From Pseudidiomarina andamanensis (GTDB lineage Bacteria; Pseudomonadota; Gammaproteobacteria; Enterobacterales; Alteromonadaceae): DNA of 32,000 bases. Positions within the stretch are counted from its first letter, which is position 1, and the number at the start of each line of letters is the position of its first letter. The notes below the pieces were generated by a model that made no database searches, was not told the origin of the DNA, and saw nothing but the letters and a program-made list of their open reading frames with translations. The stretch lies in the NCBI RefSeq assembly GCF_009734345.1, contig NZ_CP032551.1, forward strand, positions 2,250,001 to 2,282,000, written 5' to 3'. Below, piece after piece: positions 6,646 to 32,000 of this stretch. Position numbers and translations under genes: made by a program.

Positions 6646-7170
6646 TTAGACAGCAGGATCTGGTTCTGCAGTTGTTTTAGGTGTTGTAGAACAACCATCT
6701 ACTCGCGAACCTTTGGTGAAGTCTGAACAACCGATAGTCCAGTTGAGGACACCACCACCAGTTGAAGCCTCTGGGCTGATAGTTACTTCAATTGGGGTTC
6801 CATCGACATCTACGGCTTCTAGAGTTGCAGTGATCAAACCACCTTGTACATCAGCTTCGGTTACGCCATTGACGTTATCGGTTGAAGTAATCGCCGGCGG
6901 GATAGGAGTCGGTGTACCGGCGACTGTAGAGCCGTCAGCAGCTGTTGAGTCAGGAATAGTCGCATTACAATTAGTCAACGCGCCATAAGTCTGGTAGCAC
7001 ATTGCCACAGTAGTTTTGTAGTTAGCCAACGCAGCTAAGCCAGTAGAAGCTTTTGCACGCTGGGTGTAGTCGCTGTACATAGGAATTGCAACAGCAGCCA
7101 AGATACCGATAATCGCAACAACGATCATCAATTCGATTAAGGTAAAACCTTTTTGAACTTGCGCTTTCAT
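6646..7170 (-). CDS. pilA: Type IVa major pilin PilA
   Basis: Short leader MKAQVQKG followed by [22 protein letters not shown] (G-1, F+1, E+5). C-terminal disulfide loop [13 protein letters not shown]. Position upstream of pilBCD. Confidence 0.93.
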
Positions 7171-7390
7171 GAAATATCTCCCGAAAGTAATTTCAACTTA
7201 TTAGTTATTGTAGTTGTCTAAAAGTAGCATCCAGATGCACTTCACCACTTGGATGGCCGCTTTACGGACCACTACAAGTCTTCTGCATCAGCCGAAAGAA
7301 CAAGTGGTTTTTGCTTTGACGACTTTCATCGGAAAGCTACTTCATCCACCAGACTTTAGCCTGCAGCCCCGCTATCCGCTGGTATTTTCC

Positions 7391-7407
7391 CGCAGGATAA
7401 ATGCCAG
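7391..7407 (-). promoter_or_regulatory. Candidate sigma-54 (-24/-12) promoter upstream of pilA
   Basis: The minus strand reads CTGGCATTTATCCTGCG. TGGCA and TGC have the exact GG-to-GC spacing of the YTGGCACGrNNNTTGCW consensus. It lies about 220 nt upstream of the pilA ATG. pilA is RpoN-dependent in Pseudomonas aeruginosa. Confidence 0.3.
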
Positions 7408-7542
7408 TTGGACCGGAGGTTTTGCGTCACCACCTCTCGGTGGCTTTGCCTTTTAAAGCATGCCTGGCAGCCAAGCCCATTGCTGGTGCTTAGTTGCACA
7501 TTGCAATACGAAAGATAGCAGAAGCTGACAATTCGTCAATAG

Positions 7543-8439
<897 letters not shown>

Positions 8440-11245: not shown

Positions 11246-11317
11246 CGTTATTCGTTATTGGTTGCTCGTTACTCGAAGTACCACTGACGAATAACGACTA
11301 ACGAATAACCAGTAACG
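11246..11317. repeat. Short hairpin copy of the heptad-arm repeat family
   Basis: Left arm cgttatt cgttatt ggttgct cgttact cg, loop aagtaccactg, right arm acgaata acgacta acgaata accagta acg. Aligned as a stem, 24 of 30 positions match. Heptads are the same as in the elements at 30069, 31212 and 31756. Confidence 0.85.
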
Positions 11318-20800: not shown

Positions 20801-22030
20801 ATGACAATTTTACGTTTACTAACCGCAGTACTGTGCTTCGCTTTGGTTGTGCCGCAAGGGCATGCGCAAGAGTTTGAGCTCAAACATGACCATAGCGAAC
20901 AGACCGAAAAATCGAAACAAGCCACTGAATATGTATGCCCAATGCATAGCCATATTGTGAGTGACGAGCCAGGCACATGCCCAATTTGTGGTATGGATCT
21001 TGAACCGCGTCAACGTCAAGAAGAGAAGTCGGTACAAGTTAGCGGCAGCATGCAGCAAAACCTCGCCATTCGCACCACCACCGTGCAATACGATACGCTC
21101 TGGCGCTATTACCCAACCATTGCGCAAGTGGCTTGGAACGACAATGCGCGCCACCATGTGCACGCCCGAGCGTCCGGCTGGGTTGAAAAGCTTTATGTAC
21201 GCAGCGAAGGCACACACGTACAACAAGGTGACCGCTTGTATGACATTTACAGTCGTGAGTTAGTGGTCGCGCAACAAGACTTATTACAAGTACTCAGCAA
21301 CGGCGCAGTGAATGGCCGATTATTGCGTGATGCGAAGCTACGCCTTGAGCTACTTGGCTTTGCCCCGCAGCTCATTAAGGAAATTGAGAAAACCCGTGAA
21401 ATCATGTACCGCGTGCCGGTTTTTGCACCGCAAGCTGGGGTGGTGACCGAACTGAATGTGGCCGAAGGCATGTATGTTGAGCCGGGCTTGGCTATGTTCA
21501 CGTTAACCGGCGACGAGAGTTTTTGGTTAATCGCCGATGTACCCGAGCGTTATAGTGATTGGCTGAGCGTTGGTGCCCCAGTTGATGTGACCTTGCCGCA
21601 AGCAAACTTAAACGCTTATGAAACCGAGATTGAGTACATTTATCCGTCACTCGATACACAAGCGCGCACACAACGCGTGCGAATTAAATTACCAAACAGC
21701 CAAGTCGGCAGTAATTTGTTGGTCGGAATGCAGGCTCAAGTTGAACTCTATGGCGGACCGAAGCGCGAAGCATTAACTGTTCCGCTTAGTAGCTTAATTG
21801 TGACCGGCGCCAATAATCGTGTCATGGTGAAAACCCACGACAATACCTTTGAGCAACGCGACGTTCATGTCGGTCTGGTGATTGGCGAGCAAGCAGAGAT
21901 ATTGCACGGTCTTGAAGAAGGCGAACAAGTGGTTGTGTCAGGGCAATTCTTGCTCGACTCTGAAGCGACCTTGTTAAATAGCCGTGCAACGGGTGAACAG
22001 GAGGCGACTGATGCTCACGCAAATCATTAA
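20801..22030 (+). CDS. cusB: Cu(I)/Ag(I) efflux RND periplasmic adaptor CusB, with an N-terminal heavy-metal-binding domain
   Basis: The start at MTILRLL gives a signal peptide. [24 protein letters not shown] is a metal-binding motif. The rest is an MFP barrel-sandwich-like sequence, and the gene sits immediately upstream of cusA. Confidence 0.9.
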
Positions 22031-25000
22031 TGCCTCACTGCGCAACCGCATGCTGGTATTGATTGCGGCGTTTCTTGCGGCATGGTTTGGTTGGCGCGCT
22101 ATGACCACCACGCCACTGGATGCTATTCCTGATCTTTCTGATGTACAGGTGATTGTTAAAACGAGTTATCCAGGACAAGCCCCTCAATTGGTAGAAGAAC
22201 AGGTAACTTGGCCGCTTGCGAATGTGATGCTGGCGGTTCCGGGCGCCTCAGAGGTGCGTGGTTACTCGTTTTTTGGCGATTCCTACTTATATATTCTGTT
22301 TGAAGACGGTACCGATATTTACTGGGCGCGCAGTCGTGTGCTTGAGTATTTAAGTCAAGCGCAACAACAACTTCCAACGGGAGTGACCCCGGAGTTAGGG
22401 CCCGATGCTAGTGGTGTAGGCTGGGTGTTCCAATATGTACTGACTGATCGCACTGGTAAACATGATCTTGGCCAACTGACCAGCTTACAAAACTGGTTTT
22501 TGAAACAAGAACTACAGAGCGTCAGCGGTGTATCTGAAATCGCAACGGTAGGCGGTATGGTACAGGCCTATCAAGTGGTGATTGAACCGCAACGCCTGCA
22601 GTCTTACGGGTTAACCATTACCGATATCCGCCAAGCAATACAAACCGCCAATCAAGAGGTGGGTGGCGGCATTGTGGAAATGGCTGAAGCTGAGTTTATG
22701 GTGCGCGGCACCGGATACATTCAGTCGCTAGACGATTTGCGTCAGTTGCCGTTGAACGTGCGTAGCGCTGCCGGCAGTGCAATTACTCTTGATGACGTGG
22801 CGACTGTGCGTCGCGGACCTTTGAGTCGTCGTGGCATTGCAGAATTGAACGGTGAAGGTGAAGTGGTTGGCGGTATTGTCGTGATGCGCCATGGCGAAAA
22901 TGCGCTAGCCACCATTGAACGTGTACGCGATAAGCTCAAAACGTTGCAACAAGGGCTGCCAGAAGGCGTCGAAATCACACCAGTGTACGACCGTTCGCAA
23001 CTGATCGAACGAGCAGTAGATAACTTAACCAATAAGCTCATTGAAGAAATGGCATTTGTGGCGCTTGTCACGGTGTTGTTTTTACTTCACATGCGCTCGG
23101 CATTGGTTGCCATTATTACGTTGCCGTTGGCCGTACTCATCAGCTTTATTGTCATGCGATGGTTAGGTATCAATGCCAACATTATGAGCTTGGGCGGTAT
23201 TGCTATCGCTATTGGTGCGCTTGTTGATGCAGCGATTGTGATGGTAGAAAACGCGCATAAACATCTCGAGCGTTATCGCGAGCAGCACGGTGACGAACCG
23301 CGAGGCGCTGAGCACTGGCAAGTCATGGCAAAGGCCACCGCAGAAGTAGGCCCTGCGCTATTCTTGTCGTTGCTGATTATCACCTTGAGTTTCGTGCCAG
23401 TATTTGCTCTAGAGCAGCAAGAAGGGCGTCTGTTTGCGCCACTTGCCTATACCAAAACCTTTGCCATGGCTGCTGCTGCATTACTGTCAATTACACTCGT
23501 GCCAGTGCTCATGGGCTACTTCGTTCGCGGTAAAATTATCAGTGAACAGCGCAACCCAATCACGCGTCTGTTGGTTGCTGTGTATCGTCCATTACTGAAC
23601 GTGGTATTGAACTGGCCGCGGTTTACTATTGTCATTGCAATACTGGCGGCGGTAAGTGCTTACTATCCGTACAGTAAGCTTGGCAGCGAGTTTATGCCAA
23701 CGATGCAAGAAGGCGATTTACTGTACATGCCGACAACGATGCCGGGCATTAGCCCCGCGGCGGTCGGCAAATTACTGCAACAAACCGATCGACTCATTAA
23801 GCAAGTACCTGAAGTCGATACCGTGTTTGGTAAAACAGGTCGTGCAGAAACGGCAACCGATCCAGCGCCGTTAACCATGTTGGAAACCACTATTCAGTTA
23901 AAGCCGCAAAGTGAATGGCGCGAAGGTATCACCATTCACGACATCATCGCCGAGCTTGATGCAACCGTGCGCGTGCCAGGCATTACCAATGCGTGGGTAC
24001 AACCGATCAAGACACGTATTGATATGCTCTCAACAGGGTTGAAAACGCCTCTGGGGTTAAAAATTGCGGGACCTGAATTAAGCGAAATTCAGCGTATTGG
24101 CGCTGATCTTGAACAACGTCTGCAAAACGTTAAGGGAATCAAATCTGTTTTTGCTGAACGCCCAGCGAGTGGTCGTTATATCGAAATTCGTCCTGATCTT
24201 ACCAAAGCGGCGCGTTACGGATTGAGTCAAGCGGATATTCAAACCGCCATTCAATTTGGTATCGGTGGTGCGACAATTGCAGAAACCGTTGAAGGGACTG
24301 AACGCTACCCAATCACGTTACGTTATCCACGTGCTGAGCGCGACCATGTTGAACGCTTGAAAACGCTACCATTGGTTAGTCAAGATGGCGCTTGGGTCAC
24401 GCTTGAGCAGGTTGCGAGTGTGGAAGTGACCGAAGGGCCGGCGATGATCCGTAGTGAAAATGCGCGTCCTACTGGTTGGATTTTCGTCGATGTTGCCGAT
24501 GATGTTGCCGTTAGTGATGTCTTAGCAGCGGCTCAACCTGTGGTGAGTGAGTACCAACTGCCACCGCGTTATAGCGTGAGTTGGTCGGGGCAGTATGAAT
24601 CGATTGAACGTGTACAAGCCAAACTCAAAGAAGTCGTACCGGTGACCCTCGCGGTTATTTTGATTTTGCTGTATCTGACATTCCGCTCATTTAAACAAGC
24701 GGTGTTGATTATGGCAACGTTACCACTCGCACTGGCTGGTAGCCTCTGGTTTATCTGGCTGCTTGGTTACAACCTATCGATTGCCGTCGTCGTCGGTATG
24801 ATTGCGTTGGCAGGCGTTGCCGCCGAGTTCGGCGTGGTGATGCTGTTGTATCTGAACAATGCATGGCGCGATAGTCAATCACGTTCTGAGCAAGGTTTGC
24901 ATGATGCGATTATGGAAGGTGCGGTACAACGAGTGCGCCCGAAGGCCATGACAGTGATCACCATCATTGCCGGGTTGCTACCAATCATGTTAACCCATGG

Positions 25001-25142
25001 TACCGGTAGCGAAGTGATGCAGCGCATTGCCGCACCAATGATCGGCGGCATGGTCGCCGCACCATTATTAAGCCTATTCGTGCTACCAGCTGTCTATTGG
25101 CTCTACCACCGTTACAAACTTCGAATAACCAATAACGTTTAA
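22011..25142 (+). CDS. cusA: Cu(I)/Ag(I) efflux RND transporter CusA
   Basis: ATG at 22011 with an AGGAGG Shine-Dalgarno 6 nt upstream. [33 protein letters not shown]...[27 protein letters not shown] closely parallels E. coli CusA. It overlaps the cusB end by 20 nt. Confidence 0.95.
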
Positions 25143-25891
25143 AGCAGCACTTGCCACCCTTGCGGTGGCTGAACCTCTCGAAGTTGTTTATGTACAGCAT
25201 CAGCCACATCGGGCTTCAAGTGATTAATCCAAACTCGGCGGGGCTGCTTATGCAGCCCTTCCAATAACTGCAAGCATAACTGCGGTGTAAGATGACAAGA
25301 CTGGTGGGCAATCGCTTCGAGCTCATTCGGAAATGAACATTCGAAAATGATGTCATCGAGCGAGCCTAGGGCGTTGATATTCTCAATCACGCTCTCGGCA
25401 TACCCCGTATCGGCCACAAACGCTGTGGTTTGGTTGTCTTTGCGAATAGCAAAACCGAACGTGGGTACGGTGTGATAGGTTCGAAATGGCTCGATGCACA
25501 CATCATCAATCCAAATTTGTTCACCGGCATTGATTTCTTGTAGACGCAACAGCGGTTTTTCTTTTGACGGCAACTCGCGCATATCCGGCCAAATCACCCA
25601 ATTAAAAACATGTTCGCGAATGGCTTCTAAGGTGTCCTGCGAGCCATAAACAGTAACCGGCGTACCAGCATCGGCAACATTAAATAGATTACCCAGCAAC
25701 ATCGGTAAACAGCAGATATGATCGCTGTGGCTATGGCTTAGAAAAATATGGCGCACCTGCTGCATTTGTTTCAGCAACAGTTGCGTGACGCCTGTACCGG
25801 CATCAATCAAGATCGATTCATTCACTTGCAAGCAAGTGCTGCCAGTGAGACCACCTAAGCCACCACTGGCACCTAACGCATGAATGTTCAT
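25139..25891 (-). CDS. MBL-fold hydrolase resembling class II 3',5'-cyclic-nucleotide phosphodiesterases; no signal peptide
   Basis: LGASGG...ILIDAGTGV...HIFLSHSHSDHI (HxHxDH) and IWPD...LP resemble COG5212/PDEase_II proteins as I recall them. The start ATG overlaps the RND stop (ATGA). Confidence 0.6.
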   Translation of the reverse strand: MNIHALGASGGLGGLTGSTCLQVNESILIDAGTGVTQLLLKQMQQVRHIFLSHSHSDHICCLPMLLGNLFNVADAGTPVTVYGSQDTLEAIREHVFNWVIWPDMRELPSKEKPLLRLQEINAGEQIWIDDVCIEPFRTYHTVPTFGFAIRKDNQTTAFVADTGYAESVIENINALGSLDDIIFECSFPNELEAIAHQSCHLTPQLCLQLLEGLHKQPRRVWINHLKPDVADAVHKQLREVQPPQGWQVLL

Positions 25892-28800
25892 TTAACGCGC
25901 ATCACCAAAGCATACATGACAGGAACCACCACCAAGGTTAACAGGGTGGCGAAGCCGAGGCCGAACATGATAACCACTGCCATGCTGACAAAAAAGTCGT
26001 CAAACAACAATGGGATCATACCAACAATCGTGGTTGCTGCCGTCATCGTAACTGGCCGCACGCGGCTGACTGAGGCATCGACCAAAGCCTGCAACGCCTC
26101 TTTGCCGGAGTGCAATTCCACGCGAACTTGCTCGAGTAACACCACGCCGTTCTTAATCAACATGCCAGATAGACTCAAGAAGCCGAGTAATGCCATAAAC
26201 CCAAACGGCTGATTCGTCAGTACAAGGCCTAAGGTGACGCCAATCACACTTAAAGGTACGGTAGTCCATAATACACCGGCCTGGCGAATCGAACTAAACA
26301 GCAGCACCGTGATGATAAACATCACTAAAAACGCCAGTGGCAGTGCTTGGAAGATAGCGCCGGTTGCTTTATTGGAGGCTTCAAACTCGCCGCCCCACGT
26401 CAGTTCATATCCGGCCGGTAATTCAATGGCTTCAATAGCCGGTCGAACACGTGCAAGCACCATAGCTGGAGTTTCTTCACCAAAAATATCATGATCAGCC
26501 ATCACCGTAATAGTGCGTTTGCGGTCGCGGCGTATAATCAAATTATCCTCTGCCAATAACGTCACGTCACGTACCACCTGACCTAATGGCACGTGCTGCT
26601 GTAACGCTGAGCTATACACTTGCAGTTCTTGCCAGTTATCGATATCGCTGCGCTCGTTGGCTGGCGCCCGCACAACAATCGGTAACAACTCCGTACCGTC
26701 GCGATAAACTCCAACAGTTTGCCCTGTGAAGTTACGTTTCAGTACATCGTCGACATCTGATTTGGTGATGCCAAGCCGGCGTGCTGCCGCTTCATTAAAA
26801 TCGGTTTCTAAAACTTTAGTACGCTGACGCCAGTTATCGCGCAAATTGCGAACGCCCGAGTCGTGCGCCAATACGTCTCGCGCTTGCGCGGCAAGTTGAC
26901 GTAACACAACGGGGTCTGGACCACTGAAACGCGCCTCAATCTTAGCGGTCTGCGTAGGGCCCATTTCGAGCGGCTTCATTTTGTACTCAACATCCGGCTG
27001 CTCAGCGCGCAAATAATCTTCGAAATCGAGCAGAATCTGCTCCAGTTGTTCTGTGTTTTGTGCCCGCAGAATCAGTTGGGCATAACTCTCATAGGATTTT
27101 TCCACCATATACGTGAGCGTAAAACGGGGGGCTCCCTGACCAATCGTTGCTGCCGAGAATACCAATCCTTCGTTGTCAGCTTTTTCATTTAGGTAGTGCT
27201 CAAGCTGTTTGACTTGCTGGGCTGTGGCACGAATGTCGGTGCCTTGCGGATACCACAAATCAATAAACGCCATGGGTGTCGTGCTTGGTGGAAAGAACGA
27301 TTGTTTAATGGTGGTGAAGCCATACCCAGCCACAACCAACAACAGCAACATCACCGCAATCGTGGTTTTGCGCCACGCTAAAAAACGGTGCAGCATCACA
27401 CGATAACCGCGAAACACCCAGTGGTTATAAACATGATCGTCGTCTTCTGGCTGTTCGCGAGCCGAGCGGGCGCGAGCGTCTTTGCGGAAAAGAATATTCC
27501 CTAAGAACGGCGTCAACGTAATCGCGGTAAACCAACTCAGCAGCAGTGAAATAAACAACACCCAAAACAGCGAGTTCGCGTATTCACCGCTGGCATCGCG
27601 AGACAGCCCAATTGGTGCGAACGCGATCACGGCAATAGCTGTGGCGCCAAGTAGCGGCCAGATATTCTGCTGCACAACATCACTAGCTGCTTGAATACGT
27701 GATAATCCACGGCGAACGCCAACCAGCATGCCTTCGGCAATCACAATCGCGTTGTCAACCAACATACCCAATGCAATGATCAACGCCCCGAGTGACACCC
27801 GCTGCAACTGAATATCCATTAAATACATAAAGATAAAGCTACCCAGTACCGTAATCAGCAGCACACCGCCAATGAGAACACCTGAGCGCAGGCCCATCGT
27901 TAGAAGTAGCGCAATAACCACAATCACAACTGCTTCAGCAAGATTGATGAGGAAATTATTGACCGAGTTATCAACTTCCGACGGTTGGTCATAAATTTTA
28001 TCAACCTGCATGCCCACCGGCTGTGCAAAGCGAAGCTCTTCAAGCTTCGCCATAACCCTCGCACCAACTTCAACCACGTTCACATCTTCAGCAAAAGACA
28101 ACGCCAGCCACAGCGAATCACGTCCGTTGTAACGCACTAAATGGGTTGGAATTTCTTGGTATTCGCGCGTTACCGTTGCCACGTCACGTAACAAGATACG
28201 CTCGTCGGCACCAGGGTTACTAATCATCAAATTCGCAAGTTCATCCACGCTGTCAAATTCGCCGCTGGTTTGTAGACGAATTCGCTCTTTGCCAACTTGC
28301 ACTCTGCCGGCGTCACTGACAGCATTTTGTGTCTGGAGTAGATTCACCAATTGTTGCGGGGGAATGCCGAAATTTGCGAGCTTTTCGCGCGAAACTTCAA
28401 CAATCACCTGCTCATTCTGCTTGCCGGAAACCATGACTTTGCCAACACCTTTCACCAGCACGAGTTCACGGCGCAAATAATCGGTGTAGTCAGCAATATC
28501 TTGATAACTATAACCGTCACCGCTAATCGCAAAGGTCATACCGTACACATCGGCAAAATCATCTTTCACCATCGGCTCGCCACTACCTGGCGGTAAGGTT
28601 TTGCGCGCATCATTCACCTTTCGGCGCAATTCATCCCATACCTGCGGCATTTGATGTTTGCGCAAGGTACTGTGCATCTCAATCATGATTTGGCTTAAGC
28701 CCGGCTGCGACACCGAGGTAACATGATCGACATAACTCAACTCTTGAATGGCATTTTCAAGCCGATAAGTGACTTCTTCTTCAACTTGTTGTGCAGTGGC

Positions 28801-28962
28801 GCCGTGGTACTGCGTAATCACCATCGCTTGTTTTAGCGTAAATTCAGGATCTTCTAATCGCCCAATATTTTGCAGAGCAACCAAACCACCTAAAAACAGA
28901 ATTAGCAACAGCATCCAACTGGTGGTGCTGCGCTTCATACTGAAGCGAGCAATATTTATCAC
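25888..28962 (-). CDS. HAE1-type RND efflux permease
   Basis: About 1024 aa with 12-TM RND architecture. The N-terminus (V)INIARFSMKRSTTSWMLLLILFLGG...IGRLEDPEFT is typical. The GTG start at 28962 was chosen because it overlaps the MFP stop (GTGA) behind an AAGGAG Shine-Dalgarno. The ATG at 28938 is an alternative. Confidence 0.9.
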   Translation of the reverse strand: MINIARFSMKRSTTSWMLLLILFLGGLVALQNIGRLEDPEFTLKQAMVITQYHGATAQQVEEEVTYRLENAIQELSYVDHVTSVSQPGLSQIMIEMHSTLRKHQMPQVWDELRRKVNDARKTLPPGSGEPMVKDDFADVYGMTFAISGDGYSYQDIADYTDYLRRELVLVKGVGKVMVSGKQNEQVIVEVSREKLANFGIPPQQLVNLLQTQNAVSDAGRVQVGKERIRLQTSGEFDSVDELANLMISNPGADERILLRDVATVTREYQEIPTHLVRYNGRDSLWLALSFAEDVNVVEVGARVMAKLEELRFAQPVGMQVDKIYDQPSEVDNSVNNFLINLAEAVVIVVIALLLTMGLRSGVLIGGVLLITVLGSFIFMYLMDIQLQRVSLGALIIALGMLVDNAIVIAEGMLVGVRRGLSRIQAASDVVQQNIWPLLGATAIAVIAFAPIGLSRDASGEYANSLFWVLFISLLLSWFTAITLTPFLGNILFRKDARARSAREQPEDDDHVYNHWVFRGYRVMLHRFLAWRKTTIAVMLLLLVVAGYGFTTIKQSFFPPSTTPMAFIDLWYPQGTDIRATAQQVKQLEHYLNEKADNEGLVFSAATIGQGAPRFTLTYMVEKSYESYAQLILRAQNTEQLEQILLDFEDYLRAEQPDVEYKMKPLEMGPTQTAKIEARFSGPDPVVLRQLAAQARDVLAHDSGVRNLRDNWRQRTKVLETDFNEAAARRLGITKSDVDDVLKRNFTGQTVGVYRDGTELLPIVVRAPANERSDIDNWQELQVYSSALQQHVPLGQVVRDVTLLAEDNLIIRRDRKRTITVMADHDIFGEETPAMVLARVRPAIEAIELPAGYELTWGGEFEASNKATGAIFQALPLAFLVMFIITVLLFSSIRQAGVLWTTVPLSVIGVTLGLVLTNQPFGFMALLGFLSLSGMLIKNGVVLLEQVRVELHSGKEALQALVDASVSRVRPVTMTAATTIVGMIPLLFDDFFVSMAVVIMFGLGFATLLTLVVVPVMYALVMRVK

Positions 28963-30050
28963 AGACCACGCTCCTTCACCCAAGGACGCACGCGCTGCTT
29001 GTCAGAAATGGCATGCACACCAGCAATGACAATTTGCTCACCTGCCTCAAGCCCTTCAATGATTTCTGCGCCGCGATTGGTTAGCGCACGTACGGTCACT
29101 TCACGCTGATTCACACGTTGCGTTTTTGCGTCATAAACCCAAACAAAATGGCCGTGCTCAGGTGCCTTTGTGCTTGGTGAGAACAATGCCGAGGTAGGCA
29201 CGATCAATGCCGCATCGCGTTGCTGAGAGACAGCCTGCGCATCAACGGACACCATCGCCGACATACCTGGCAATACATTCAGATTTTCTGGTGTTGGTAG
29301 GGTAAACACGACCTTGTAGGTGTTAGTAGCAGGATCCGCTGTGGTATCCCACTCTTTTAACGTCGCCTTAAATTTAAGCTCGGGCGCCGCTGCAAAAATC
29401 ACATCCGGCTGGTAATTCGTGTTGCGTTGAACACGAGCGAACAAACCTTCAGGCACCCGAATACTGACATCAATTGCATTGTTCATTTGTAACGTGGCAA
29501 TTGCCCGTTGCGGTTGCACGGTTTCATAGCGTTCCACAAAAACATGTGCAATGGTGCCTGCAAAAGGCGCTCGTAACTCGGTATACCGCACATTGGCTCG
29601 CGCTGTTTCGAGGTTTGCCCTTGCTACCTCTAAATTCGATTTCACTTCATCAAACTGTTGCGGAGAAATAACGCCTTGTTCTACCAAATTTTCAGTACGA
29701 CGAAATTGTGCCTGCGCCAACTCAAACCGCGCCTGAGCTTGGTCTAACACCAGCTGATAATCGGTCGGGTCAAGTTTGGCAATCAATTCGCCTTGCTTCA
29801 CTTCGTTACCAGCCTTCACCGGAAATTCAGTAATTTCACCACCAACTCGAAATGCCAATTGCGCGACCTGCGCAGCCTCTACCACCGCCGGGAATTGCCG
29901 TAAACGCTGGTCATCAGAAAAATTCACCGTATGAAGTTTCACTGGCTGCACAATTTCCTCGCGCGCCGCTGTCTCGGCGACATCACCGCAGCCAACGAGG
30001 TTAGCGAGCAGGGCGGCCACGCCGGTGAGTAGTAAAGCCTGAATACGCAT
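28959..30050 (-). CDS. RND efflux periplasmic adaptor (MFP), lipoprotein
   Basis: Lipobox LANLVGC. HlyD/MFP-like coiled-coil and barrel regions. AAGGAG Shine-Dalgarno upstream. Confidence 0.9.
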   Translation of the reverse strand: MRIQALLLTGVAALLANLVGCGDVAETAAREEIVQPVKLHTVNFSDDQRLRQFPAVVEAAQVAQLAFRVGGEITEFPVKAGNEVKQGELIAKLDPTDYQLVLDQAQARFELAQAQFRRTENLVEQGVISPQQFDEVKSNLEVARANLETARANVRYTELRAPFAGTIAHVFVERYETVQPQRAIATLQMNNAIDVSIRVPEGLFARVQRNTNYQPDVIFAAAPELKFKATLKEWDTTADPATNTYKVVFTLPTPENLNVLPGMSAMVSVDAQAVSQQRDAALIVPTSALFSPSTKAPEHGHFVWVYDAKTQRVNQREVTVRALTNRGAEIIEGLEAGEQIVIAGVHAISDKQRVRPWVKERGL

Positions 30051-30068
30051 AAATTCTCCTTGATTAAA

Positions 30069-30240
30069 CGTTATTCGTTATTCGTTAATCGTTATTCGTT
30101 AATCGTTATTCGTTAGTTTGGCTCGCTCGATAAATTAAATACGAATTAGCTCACTTCTGTGTGTGCTATTTTTTGTGTTTCGTGTTTCGTGTTTCGTGTT
30201 TTTGCTTTTTCGAATAACGAATAACCAATAACGATTAACG
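30069..30240 (+). repeat. Heptad-arm inverted-repeat intergenic element, copy A (full length)
   Basis: Left arm has 6.5 tandem CGTTAWT heptads (30069-30115). The core carries TTTGGCTCGCTCGATA, a 30-nt block shared with copy C, and GTGTTTC x4 (30175-30202). The right arm of AWTAACG-type heptads (30211-30240) is the inverted complement of the left arm. Confidence 0.9.
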
Positions 30241-30334
30241 CATTGTAGCCTTTCTCATATTAATTTATATTGAATTAATCTTGACTACATATTCAGATAA
30301 ACTTAATAAGATAGTGCCTTATGGATTGTGCCTT

Positions 30335-31207
30335 ATGAAAATACAGCAGCTACAAATGCTCAATGCGTTGAGTGAAACCGGCACATTGCAAGGAGCCGCT
30401 GAGCAGCTACACCGAACGCAAGCTGCTGTCAGTATGGCACTTAAAAAGCTTGAGGACGAGGCAGGTTTTCCGCTATTTGACCGTGATGGTTATCGTTTGA
30501 AGCTCACCGCTTTTGGCGAACAGTTTCTGCGACAGGCGCGAGAGGTACTCAGGCAACAGCAACGGCTTCAAAGTTTGACGCAACAACTGCGCGAAGGAGC
30601 CGAGCCGCTGCTGCGCATTTCCTATGATCATACCTGTGCTCCGGCGAGTTTATTTAAGGCAATGCGCGCCGTGCAAGAGCGTTATCCGGCAACCGATTTA
30701 TTACTCAATGGCGAAGCACAACTTCGTTCGTTGCGTGCCGTACGCGAAGGGGAAGCCGATTTGGCATTAACGCCATGGCTGCCAGTGTTTCGTCAACATG
30801 GCGACTTTGAAACCAAACTCGTGCGGCCCTTTGAACTGTTAGTGGCAATGTCGCCTAGTTTAGCCGCCAAATATGGTTTGCCTAAACAACGCCGAGACTT
30901 ACTCGATATCCCCATGCTCATGCCGCAAAATCAAGATGTCGGTATTAACCTCGATAGAATGATTCGGATGCCGGGGCAACAGCGCATACGCGTGAATGAC
31001 TCCATTGCACAACGTGAACTTCTTGTCGCTGGAATGGGGTGGGGCATTGTGCCTGGCGATATTATTGTGGATGAGCTGGCGCGCGGCGATCTGATTCGCA
31101 TCGACATTCCAGATTTCATTAATCAGGTTCATTTAGAGGTGCATTTGGTGCGTTCAGCAGAGCGAATCGCCGGCCCCGCCGCCCAAATAATTTGGGACCA
31201 CTTTTGA
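30335..31207 (+). CDS. LysR-family transcriptional regulator
   Basis: N-terminal HTH MKIQQLQMLNALSETGTLQGAAEQLHRTQAAVSMALKKLEDEAG and a LysR substrate-binding C-terminal part. It is divergent from the MFP-RND-MBL operon. The TTG at 30281 was rejected as the start. Confidence 0.9.
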   Translation: MKIQQLQMLNALSETGTLQGAAEQLHRTQAAVSMALKKLEDEAGFPLFDRDGYRLKLTAFGEQFLRQAREVLRQQQRLQSLTQQLREGAEPLLRISYDHTCAPASLFKAMRAVQERYPATDLLLNGEAQLRSLRAVREGEADLALTPWLPVFRQHGDFETKLVRPFELLVAMSPSLAAKYGLPKQRRDLLDIPMLMPQNQDVGINLDRMIRMPGQQRIRVNDSIAQRELLVAGMGWGIVPGDIIVDELARGDLIRIDIPDFINQVHLEVHLVRSAERIAGPAAQIIWDHF

Positions 31208-31211
31208 AGAG

Positions 31212-31360
31212 CGTTGTTCGTTATTCGTTAGTCGTTATTCGAAAAGCTAAACACGAAACACAAAGGCTAGCGCACAGAAAAACGAGTAAACTTGAATCAG
31301 AGCTATCGAGCGAGCCAAATTCACGAGTAACCAATAACGATTAACGAAAAACGAATAACG
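31212..31360 (-). repeat. Heptad-arm inverted-repeat intergenic element, copy B (inverted relative to A and C)
   Basis: Arms cgttgtt cgttatt cgttagt cgttatt cg ... cgagtaa ccaataa cgattaa cgaaaaa cgaataa cg. 31304-31319 is the exact reverse complement of 30117-30132. aaacacgaaacac is the reverse complement of the GTGTTTC array. Confidence 0.88.
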
Positions 31361-31363
31361 AAG

Positions 31364-31678
31364 TTAAACGAGTTTCTTCCAGATTAAACGCGGCTTCGGC
31401 TCTGGAATATAAATAGCGTAACCGAATTGTGTTCGAAGCTCCGTACCGCTGTTTTGCAAACTCAATAGAGATTCGCTTTTAATATCACTTGCGGTTTCGT
31501 TGCGAATGTCATTGCGCGCAACATCAACACTATGATCCCAGCTACCGACGGCGCGCTCTGCAGAATAAACAAAGCGATACACTTGCATATTAGCTGATTC
31601 AACAGATTCAGCTGCGACAGGTGCTGCAGATGTTATTGCTGCAGCTAAAAAAAGACCTTTCAAAATGGATGTGTTCAT
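31364..31678 (-). CDS. Hypothetical secreted protein (104 aa)
   Basis: ATG at 31678 gives a signal peptide MNTSILKGLFLAAAITSAAPVAAES. No family was recognised. The gene is flanked on both sides by repeat copies. Confidence 0.55.
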   Translation of the reverse strand: MNTSILKGLFLAAAITSAAPVAAESVESANMQVYRFVYSAERAVGSWDHSVDVARNDIRNETASDIKSESLLSLQNSGTELRTQFGYAIYIPEPKPRLIWKKLV

Positions 31679-31755
31679 GACTAATCCCCCCACGAGATGT
31701 CATGTATTAAGATAGTCTAAAACTGTGAAAGGTTTATGTCACAATTGTAAATAAT

Positions 31756-31891
31756 CGTTACTGGTTGTTCGTTATTGGTTATTCGTGTGCTTGGCTCTCT
31801 GGATAGATTAAATACGAATTAGCTCACTTCTGTGTGCGTTAGCTTTGGTGTTTCGTGTTTCGCTTTTTCGAATAACGAATAACGAATAACG
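31756..31891 (+). repeat. Heptad-arm inverted-repeat intergenic element, copy C
   Basis: Arms cgttact ggttgtt cgttatt ggttatt cg ... cgaataa cgaataa cgaataa cg. The 30-nt block 31807-31836 is identical to 30134-30163. GTGTTTC x2. Confidence 0.88.
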
Positions 31892-32000
31892 TTTTTGCAC
31901 TTCATTCACAGCTTTTATCGCAAAGATTGATGCATATATCCTCTTATGAATTTAATTCAGCCACAAAACCTCGTATAATTCCGCGCACTTTTAAACCGCA

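Follow-up and report, generated by a model that had tools for sequence, protein, structure and literature searches.

We analysed a window of 32,000 nucleotides from Pseudidiomarina andamanensis (assembly GCF_009734345.1, contig NZ_CP032551.1, positions 2,250,001 to 2,282,000) that carries members of an intergenic repeat family built from tandem 7-nt units, or heptads. Their anatomy is 5'-(CGTTATT)n ... (AATAACG)m-3', on either strand, around an exchangeable core. We refer to the two heptad arrays as "arms". The members found in the window are as follows:

30069-30240, + strand: copy A, full element, between the start of an RND-MFP gene (30050, - strand) and the LysR start (30335). Left arm 30069-30117, 7 CGTTATT-type (CGTTATT/CGTTAAT) units; core 30118-30170; GTGTTTC array 30171-30201, 4.4 units, followed by the junction TTGCTTTTT; right arm 30211-30240, 4 AATAACG-type units.
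31212-31360, - strand: copy B, full element, inverted, taking up the space that separates the LysR stop (31207) from that of a gene for a 104-aa protein (31364).
31756-31891, + strand: copy C, full element, with arms of 4 and 3 units.
11246-11317, no strand assigned: copy D, arms-only hairpin in which a loop of 9-13 nt separates 4 CGTTATT-type from 5 AATAACG-type units.
25120-25140, - strand: lone AATAACG-type arm of about 2.5 units with no partner arm, inside the end of an RND pump gene.

Copies A, B and C had been reported in a preliminary description of this DNA, and a re-reading of positions 29400-32000 confirmed their coordinates and the motifs given for them; copy D and the lone arm had been missed. 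The three full copies are all intergenic, as had been stated, and carry no open reading frame (ORF). Copy C lies upstream of both the 104-aa gene (start 31678, - strand) and the acnB leader, and the orientation of the copies relative to neighbouring genes is inconsistent (A+, B-, C+). Copy D has no core and ends 9 nt before the start codon (11326) of a GntR/PdhR-like gene. The lone arm encodes the C-terminal residues ...KLRITNNV* of the RND pump gene (21984-25142); the orthologous arm in a related locus, L245, has 4 units and supplies the gene's stop codon (L245 4820-4851). Heptad arms serve as coding sequence plus stop codon at three places: window 25108-25142, L245 4820-4851 and L307 5930-5972.

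Several tests set the arrays apart from their surroundings. Tandem Repeats Finder detected period-7 arrays of 3-7 copies in each of the six arms of the full copies as well as in the GTGTTTC stretches, and the signals of a generic period-7 detector fell, within the window, solely inside the elements. A stricter array finder returned 8 arrays in the window vs 0-1 in shuffles, and the two-unit pattern CGTTAWTCGTTAWT, with at most 2 mismatches allowed, matched 27 times against an expectation of 0.96. The arms are 21-49 nt long and 85-91% complementary, which gives a long stem like that of the intervening sequences (IVS) of 23S rRNA. Predicted folds of the stronger strand range from -42 to -57 kcal/mol (z -4 to -6.6 vs shuffles), with copy A at -57.3 kcal/mol (z -6.6). 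The earlier proposal that the inverted arms could form a long stem is thus upheld.

The alignment of A, B and C has a mean column identity of 78%. Both of the shared core motifs that had been described are present: TTTGGCTCGCTCGATA at 30117-30132 in A is the reverse complement of 31304-31319 in B, and the 30-nt block at 30134-30163 in A is identical to 31807-31836 in C. The GTGTTTC array has more units in A (4.4), as had been said, and about 2 to 2.7 in B and C (2.7 in C). The core of A contains TCGATAAATT (30127-30136), which matches the high-affinity motif published for H-NS nucleation; B and C have not kept it. The search for rRNA genes in the window was negative, and each copy either separates protein-coding genes or lies at the end of one. 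As had been noted before, the window contains no transposase. Neither the window elements nor 15 related loci matched Rfam at gathering thresholds, where the searches gave solely sub-threshold chance matches; a literature search on heptad strings returned no relevant paper, and full-text searches no named match.

The family is widely dispersed. A two-arm pattern, CGTTANTCGTTATTCG-N(80-110)-CGAATAAC, which recovers all three full copies of the window, matched at least 120 metagenome loci on contigs of 33-66% GC and had no match in viral contigs. The span of GC content indicates many hosts, all with the same AT-rich unit, and the earlier suggestion of a repeat family is borne out, the repeats being a real dispersed family. 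A degenerate four-heptad pattern was also run on viral contigs; the matches listed were attributed to chance and were uninformative. Where two arrays lay less than 300 nt apart among the metagenome matches listed, the order was (CGTTATT)n then (AATAACG)m in 92 cases and the reverse in 0.

Composition follows a similar polarity: of 121 inverted heptad pairs in the metagenome and viral loci L122-L306, 106 combine a 5' arm rich in G+T with a 3' arm rich in A+C, and in most pairs with units other than CGTTATT, G exceeds C in the 5' arm. Some contigs chosen for their CGTTATT hairpins also carry inverted pairs of other units (GAGCAGG, GAGTTGA, GGTACAG and ATGTGCG in L159, L162, L149 and L236), which indicates that several heptad "dialects" coexist in one genome. 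Readings of the heptads as parS, DnaA-box, ARG-box or CtrA-like sites were dropped because the sequences do not match.

The family is defined by its arms and not by its core. The metagenome elements fall into several unrelated core classes, each of which recurs across contigs: window-like cores (L129, L206); cores with inner arms CGTGCGCTNCGCTGTTCGTCCG, the type found at site C of P. marina (below); cores of the form CGCGGC...GCCGCG; elements with an extra outer inverted repeat; and, on low-GC contigs, elements whose arms reach 30 units and whose loops are tiny. The "conserved core" around which the family had been described is therefore not its definition, since cores are swapped while arms stay. 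The low-GC loci L133, L134, L136, L139, L143, L164, L199, L225 and L234 have arms of up to 30 units (210 nt) and tiny perfect hairpins, whose loops are GNA triloops or UUCG (GCGAAGC, GCGTAGC, GCCTTCGGC), motifs of unusually stable DNA or RNA mini-hairpins.

The insertion sites are biased in placement and free of duplications. Elements lie between convergent genes in 24 of 70 cases, compared with 83 of 491 intergenic regions (17%), and they often fill the whole space between two stop codons, leaving 1-5 nt on each side. The absence of a target-site duplication, first noted in the window, holds for a sample of 91 elements: the longest direct repeat in the flanks averaged 3.59 nt, vs 3.65 nt in shuffled pairings. 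A possible left-flank target preference, AAnAnCG, is seen in the four window copies, but inspection of the metagenome flanks listed revealed no such pattern, and the candidate was rejected.

Orthologous sites in relatives show how fast the elements change. A scan of a genome collection with a core/right-junction pattern returned three loci, among them P. marina PIM1 (L124) and a gammaproteobacterial metagenome-assembled genome (MAG; L122); the third, in Paludibacter, was discarded as a chance GTGTTTC tandem. L124 aligns with window positions 25866-31773 at 86.7% identity and has A and B at the same sites. The homologues of the LysR protein likewise confirm that the host belongs to the Idiomarinaceae. 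Copy B is 97.3% identical between the two species; for copy A the core is 96.6% and the left arm 87.5% identical, and the GTGTTTC array has 4 units in the window and 2 in P. marina. This difference in unit number between orthologs agrees with the earlier view of the arrays as slippage-prone. At site C, P. marina has kept the arms and has a different core, so that the whole element is 44.8% identical; the P. marina core is of the type that flanks a PF05635 (IVP) gene elsewhere. The L122 element has the arms and the GTGTTTC/CTTTTTCG junction of the window copies around yet another core.

Empty orthologous sites, which the preliminary description had proposed to look for, were found when the LysR-ortholog loci of seven other Idiomarinaceae were compared. 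A, B and C are all absent from more distant species, namely L250, L251, L252, P. indica, P. salinarum and P. sediminum, where the intergenic distance at site A is 108-183 nt. Site B is empty in L245, in which the stops of LysR and the small gene are 9 nt apart (TGAAAAACGAACTTA) vs a 148-nt element in the window. At the junction, both of the empty sites that could be read contain AAAACGAA, which nearly copies the arm unit. L245 has an element of similar build at site A, made of AGATATT/CGATATT heptads and in the opposite orientation, and, adjoining acnB, a hybrid element whose left arm is of the AGATATT type and whose right arm is of the AATAACG type. L245 had at one point been regarded as a very close relative (its LysR protein is 98% identical), a view that was dropped at a DNA identity of 81-84%; the empty site thus dates to species-level divergence. 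These comparisons show that gain, loss, replacement and recombination of elements take place as the species of one genus diverge, which is the behaviour of a mobile, MITE-like unit (MITE, miniature inverted-repeat transposable element). To that extent the earlier description of a MITE-like unit stands.

Hairpins of the second dialect, AGATATT/CGATATT, occur within the genus at L245 9780-9915 and 16170-16263 and at L253 12995-13066. The L245 hybrid element lies beside a MacB/ABC/MFP gene cluster of about 5 kb that is absent from window site C. The 104-aa gene between B and C is itself patchy: it is present in P. marina and L245, has a possible counterpart in P. sediminum and is absent from P. 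indica, P. salinarum and L250-252, and in loci without it acnB directly follows LysR.

Some members of the family carry a gene. A screen for genes bracketed by two arrays returned mostly ordinary genes between separate elements; the sole recurrent array-bracketed gene encodes a four-helix-bundle protein. The screen yielded a 123-aa protein in L234/L186, and a homologue lies inside an element in L192. Both match PF05635, "23S rRNA-intervening sequence protein" (Pfam E ~1e-35), and TIGR02436, "four helix bundle protein" (NCBIfam E ~1e-33), with weak matches to the bAvd and DivGenRetAVD models that are below curated thresholds. The closest homologues of the L192 protein are in Pseudidiomarina species and the L122 MAG. 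The PF05635 protein of X. campestris is reported to be a homopentamer of four-helix bundles (PMC4990558), and the entries of the PDB homologues 2GSC and 2RLD contain 5 chains each. More than 2000 PF05635/TIGR02436 homologues were found at E up to 1e-15.

In Idiomarinaceae the gene-carrying version has the arrangement rpsT-[CGTTATT arms]-PF05635 gene-[AATAACG arms]-murJ, in L192, L253-L255 (P. halophila), L256 (Pseudidiomarina sp. QPJA01) and L307. The L307 cassette has four units on each side, and the PF05635 stop codon lies within the right arm. The inner arms of the cassettes are those of gene-less hairpins at P. marina site C, L153 and L214, so these hairpins look like the cassette with its gene deleted. 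The core is thus one of three things: nothing (D), a non-coding module of about 90 nt (A, B and C), or a PF05635/TIGR02436 gene in the longer version. The claim that the repeat corresponds to no named family accordingly needs qualification: it has no Rfam or full-text match, but it is not an orphan, because its arms are those of the PF05635 cassette and heptamers are known in the Coxiella IVS.

The L307 PF05635 gene enters the right arm through a CTTCGAATAAC junction that it has in common with the RND pump gene. The PF05635 gene adjoins murJ in two unrelated lineages, as rpsT-IVP-murJ (L253-L256, L307, L192) and as murJ-IVP-x-tsaD-groES (L257-L262, anaerobic digester), which may be a coincidence or a preferred site.

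The association of PF05635 genes with inverted heptad arrays extends beyond the CGTTATT unit. In an unrelated anaerobic-digester organism (L257), CGTGAAT/CGTAAAT/CCGGAAA units extend for about 230 nt 5' of the PF05635 gene, and ATTCACG/ATTTACG units for about 220 nt 3' of it. We surveyed 44 loci of PF05635 relatives from IMG/VR (34 after removal of near-duplicates) with the generic period-7 detector. A period-7 array lay within 300 nt of the gene in 22 of the 34 loci, and the density of such arrays was 1.63/kb near PF05635 genes vs 0.23/kb elsewhere in the same loci. The association is specific to period 7: periods 5, 6, 8, 9 and 10 gave 0-0.2/kb near the genes, with period 8 in one locus alone. 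Two-sided arrays were present in 16 of the 44 loci (450-nt window), and the consensus units were exact reverse complements in 11 of these 16. The units are locus-specific (TAGGGTG, TTGGCTG, CAACGTT, GAAGGAA, GGTAAGA and GAGAGTG, for example), and other arrays in a locus matched the gene-flanking unit (at least 6/7) in 16 of 30 cases, compared with 3% between loci. We found no paper on a general PF05635-heptad association, or on dispersed gene-less heptad foldbacks, among open-access papers and preprints. The IVS of Coxiella burnetii 23S rRNA, with two or three tandem GACAGAT heptamers that vary between strains upstream of its S23p ORF, provides literature support for the link at the family's type locality (PMC4990558).

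The window repeats are, we think, probably gene-less (non-autonomous) members of an IVS-like "heptad foldback" family. We infer mobility from insertion polymorphism between the sequences of congeners. An element would insert beside heptad-like AACGAA sequences by a duplication-free mechanism, its unit numbers would then shift by slippage, and recombination with other copies would exchange its core. As part of a neighbouring gene's mRNA, the arms would pair into a double-stranded RNA stem of 20-45 bp. By analogy with 23S rRNA intervening sequences, such a stem may be cut by RNase III; cleavage in the Coxiella IVS occurs at the first heptamer repeat (PMC4990558). A cut stem might act as a transcript boundary, terminator or stabiliser where it lies between convergent genes, as B does, and as a processed 5' leader in A and D. 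The four-helix-bundle protein of a gene-carrying copy may recognise heptad arrays, by analogy with ring proteins that bind repeated RNA motifs, and on this speculative view it would be the reader of the arrays and a partner acting in trans.

A wider proposal can be put forward tentatively, and we regard it as possible though doubtful. PF05635/TIGR02436 proteins would be sequence-specific binders of heptad repeats, and with their inverted arrays would form one widespread, unrecognised class of selfish foldback elements with lineage "dialects". IVS would represent a special case, in which the element came to lie in rRNA, and A-D would be gene-less, MITE-like progeny acted on in trans. The chance is substantial that the underlying association of protein and heptads is a principle both new and general.

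A number of observations weigh against the heptad foldback reading or limit its reach. The window contains no PF05635 gene, and a simple consensus scan revealed no terminator inside the elements. The 115-aa helical bundle is not known to have nuclease or recombinase activity, so it cannot make up the whole mobility machinery. Copy B (97.3%) and the core of A (96.6%) are more conserved in P. marina than the surrounding 5.9 kb (86.7%), which may reflect a function at the level of the host rather than selfish spread. The promoter-side intergenic flanks are also almost identical between the window and P. marina, and the cause of the conservation could be constraint, concerted evolution or recent transfer. 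Insertion is read from species that are 81-87% identical in DNA, for which deletion in the relatives is an alternative. Finally, the PF05635 survey covers IMG/VR "viral" contigs and four other contexts, and is a sample rather than a census.

The conservation of B and of the A core (97% identity between species with 87% identical flanks) is what would be expected if the elements were not mobile but had originated where they stand, as regulatory DNA or RNA of the host. The elements would be bidirectional terminators, mRNA stabilisers or binding arrays for nucleoid or regulatory proteins, in which heptads grew by slippage and arms were made symmetric by template switching. Their placement, either precisely between two stop codons or directly ahead of a start codon, their variable unit number and the match of TCGATAAATT in A to the high-affinity H-NS motif are in keeping with such a role. 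We nonetheless consider this origin unlikely. A purely local origin is contradicted by the 148-nt block where a relative has a 9-nt spacer, by the common AT-rich heptad and polarity on contigs of 33-66% GC, and by identical modules that recur in unrelated contigs; the exchange of cores, the hybrid elements and the inconsistent orientation relative to neighbouring genes are also difficult to reconcile with it.

Mobility could have another agent. REP/REPIN-like elements are moved as single-stranded DNA hairpins by an HUH Y1 transposase (RAYT or IS200/IS605-type), which in this case would be encoded elsewhere. The hairpin build, the lack of a target-site duplication, insertion beside a short match to the end of the element itself (AACG), intergenic placement with an excess at convergent gene ends, and lineage-specific expansion are features that such elements would have. 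However, the arms are tandem heptads and not a 20-40-nt REP with a GTAG head, the sole gene found enclosed by them is PF05635, and no Y1 transposase turned up in the loci sampled, in which Pfam labels cover the called genes, though no scan was aimed at that family. We judge this explanation to be improbable.

There is very little to recommend a classical MITE, that is, a deletion derivative of a DDE-transposase insertion sequence whose terminal inverted repeats serve its cut-and-paste movement. The elements do have such repeats, are small and intergenic, and show presence/absence polymorphism, but the lack of target-site duplications in 91 elements argues against it, as do the fuzzy ends of variable unit number, the absence of a transposase among genes called around the Idiomarinaceae loci (the metagenome loci being unannotated), and the four-helix-bundle gene that the longer version carries instead. 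Small RNA genes, in which the core is a trans-acting RNA and the arms are processing signals, are likewise highly improbable: the 30-nt block identical in A and C is kept in P. marina, and a small hairpin precedes a U-rich GUGUUUC...CUUUUU on one strand (also in the L122 MAG element), but the elements have no promoter-like site in a simple consensus scan and no Rfam match, and their core is dispensable (D) and replaceable (P. marina site C).

Three further features of the window were recorded. A 14-nt tandem duplication at 30310-30337 (GATAGTGCCTTATG / GATTGTGCCTTATG) has a second copy whose last three nucleotides are the start codon of LysR (ATG at 30335); the sequence is present in a single copy in P. 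marina. The protein encoded by the 104-aa gene (31364-31678, - strand), which is flanked by B and C, has no Pfam match and, judged by eye, a hydrophobic, signal-peptide-like N-terminus. A c-di-GMP-I riboswitch aptamer lies at 7359-7460 (- strand; Rfam RF01051, 57.7 bits vs a gathering score of 35), between - strand ORFs at 6646-7170 and 7543-8409.

The function of PF05635/TIGR02436 proteins has been unknown since 1993. Inverted 7-nt arrays are now a candidate partner for this large family, and the data suggest that 23S rRNA IVS, scattered reports of heptamer repeats and intergenic hairpins are facets of one type of element. The repeat class is abundant in environmental bacteria and missing from Rfam, and it can add or replace C-terminal residues of genes. 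In this genome an RND efflux operon has a copy in its 5' leader, another copy separates two convergent genes, and a third ends 9 nt short of a GntR/PdhR-like gene, so that an influence of the copies on how these genes are expressed is possible.

Several known systems resemble the heptad elements in part. The foldback (FB) transposons of eukaryotes also have inverted arms made of variable numbers of short tandem repeats and a central part that is variable or absent; they differ in being eukaryotic, in their 9-bp target-site duplications, and in their unrelated sequence and proteins. The weak matches of PF05635 proteins to bAvd recall Avd, the accessory protein of diversity-generating retroelements, but here there is no reverse transcriptase and no pair of template and variable repeats. 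REP, BIME and REPIN sequences are, like the elements described here, abundant intergenic hairpins of mosaic structure with two inverted units and a variable linker. REP/REPIN systems also share the lack of a target-site duplication and the arrangement of a single-copy protein gene flanked by dispersed repeats. They differ in that the heptad elements have tandem arms of variable number, with neither a 20-40-nt imperfect palindrome nor a GT(A/G)G head, and the enclosed gene encodes a four-helix-bundle protein, not the HUH transposase of RAYTs.

The STRR sequences of cyanobacteria are heptamer repeats. TAACTGA direct repeats occur in Beggiatoaceae, Cyanobacteria and Bacteroidetes (PMC4679880). 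Both are intergenic tandem 7-nt arrays with variable copy number and a patchy phylogenetic distribution, often directly beside start codons, and their function is unknown, as it is here. Almost all TAACTGA arrays are direct repeats that lie upstream of genes and share one orientation (in Maribeggiatoa, 169 sets are direct and 1 is inverted; PMC4679880), whereas the arrays described here form inverted pairs around a core and have the unit CGTTATT. The TAACTGA paper makes no mention of a PF05635 link (PMC4679880).

The closest likeness is to the IVS of 23S rRNA in Leptospira and Coxiella burnetii, where a long inverted-repeat stem surrounds an optional PF05635 gene and heptamers of variable copy number lie in the stem region. 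Gene-less versions exist there as well, for example the Salmonella IVS. The distribution of IVS is sporadic, and a mobile or selfish nature has been suggested for them; the authors of the Coxiella paper review the idea that they are mobile elements with an ORF that may serve mobility (PMC4990558). The window family differs in being multi-copy, in its CGTTATT heptad, and in its location between protein-coding genes and not in helix 25 or 45 of 23S rRNA, and because of this location we do not file its members as IVS. The window elements are built like IVS and, by analogy, probably work like them.

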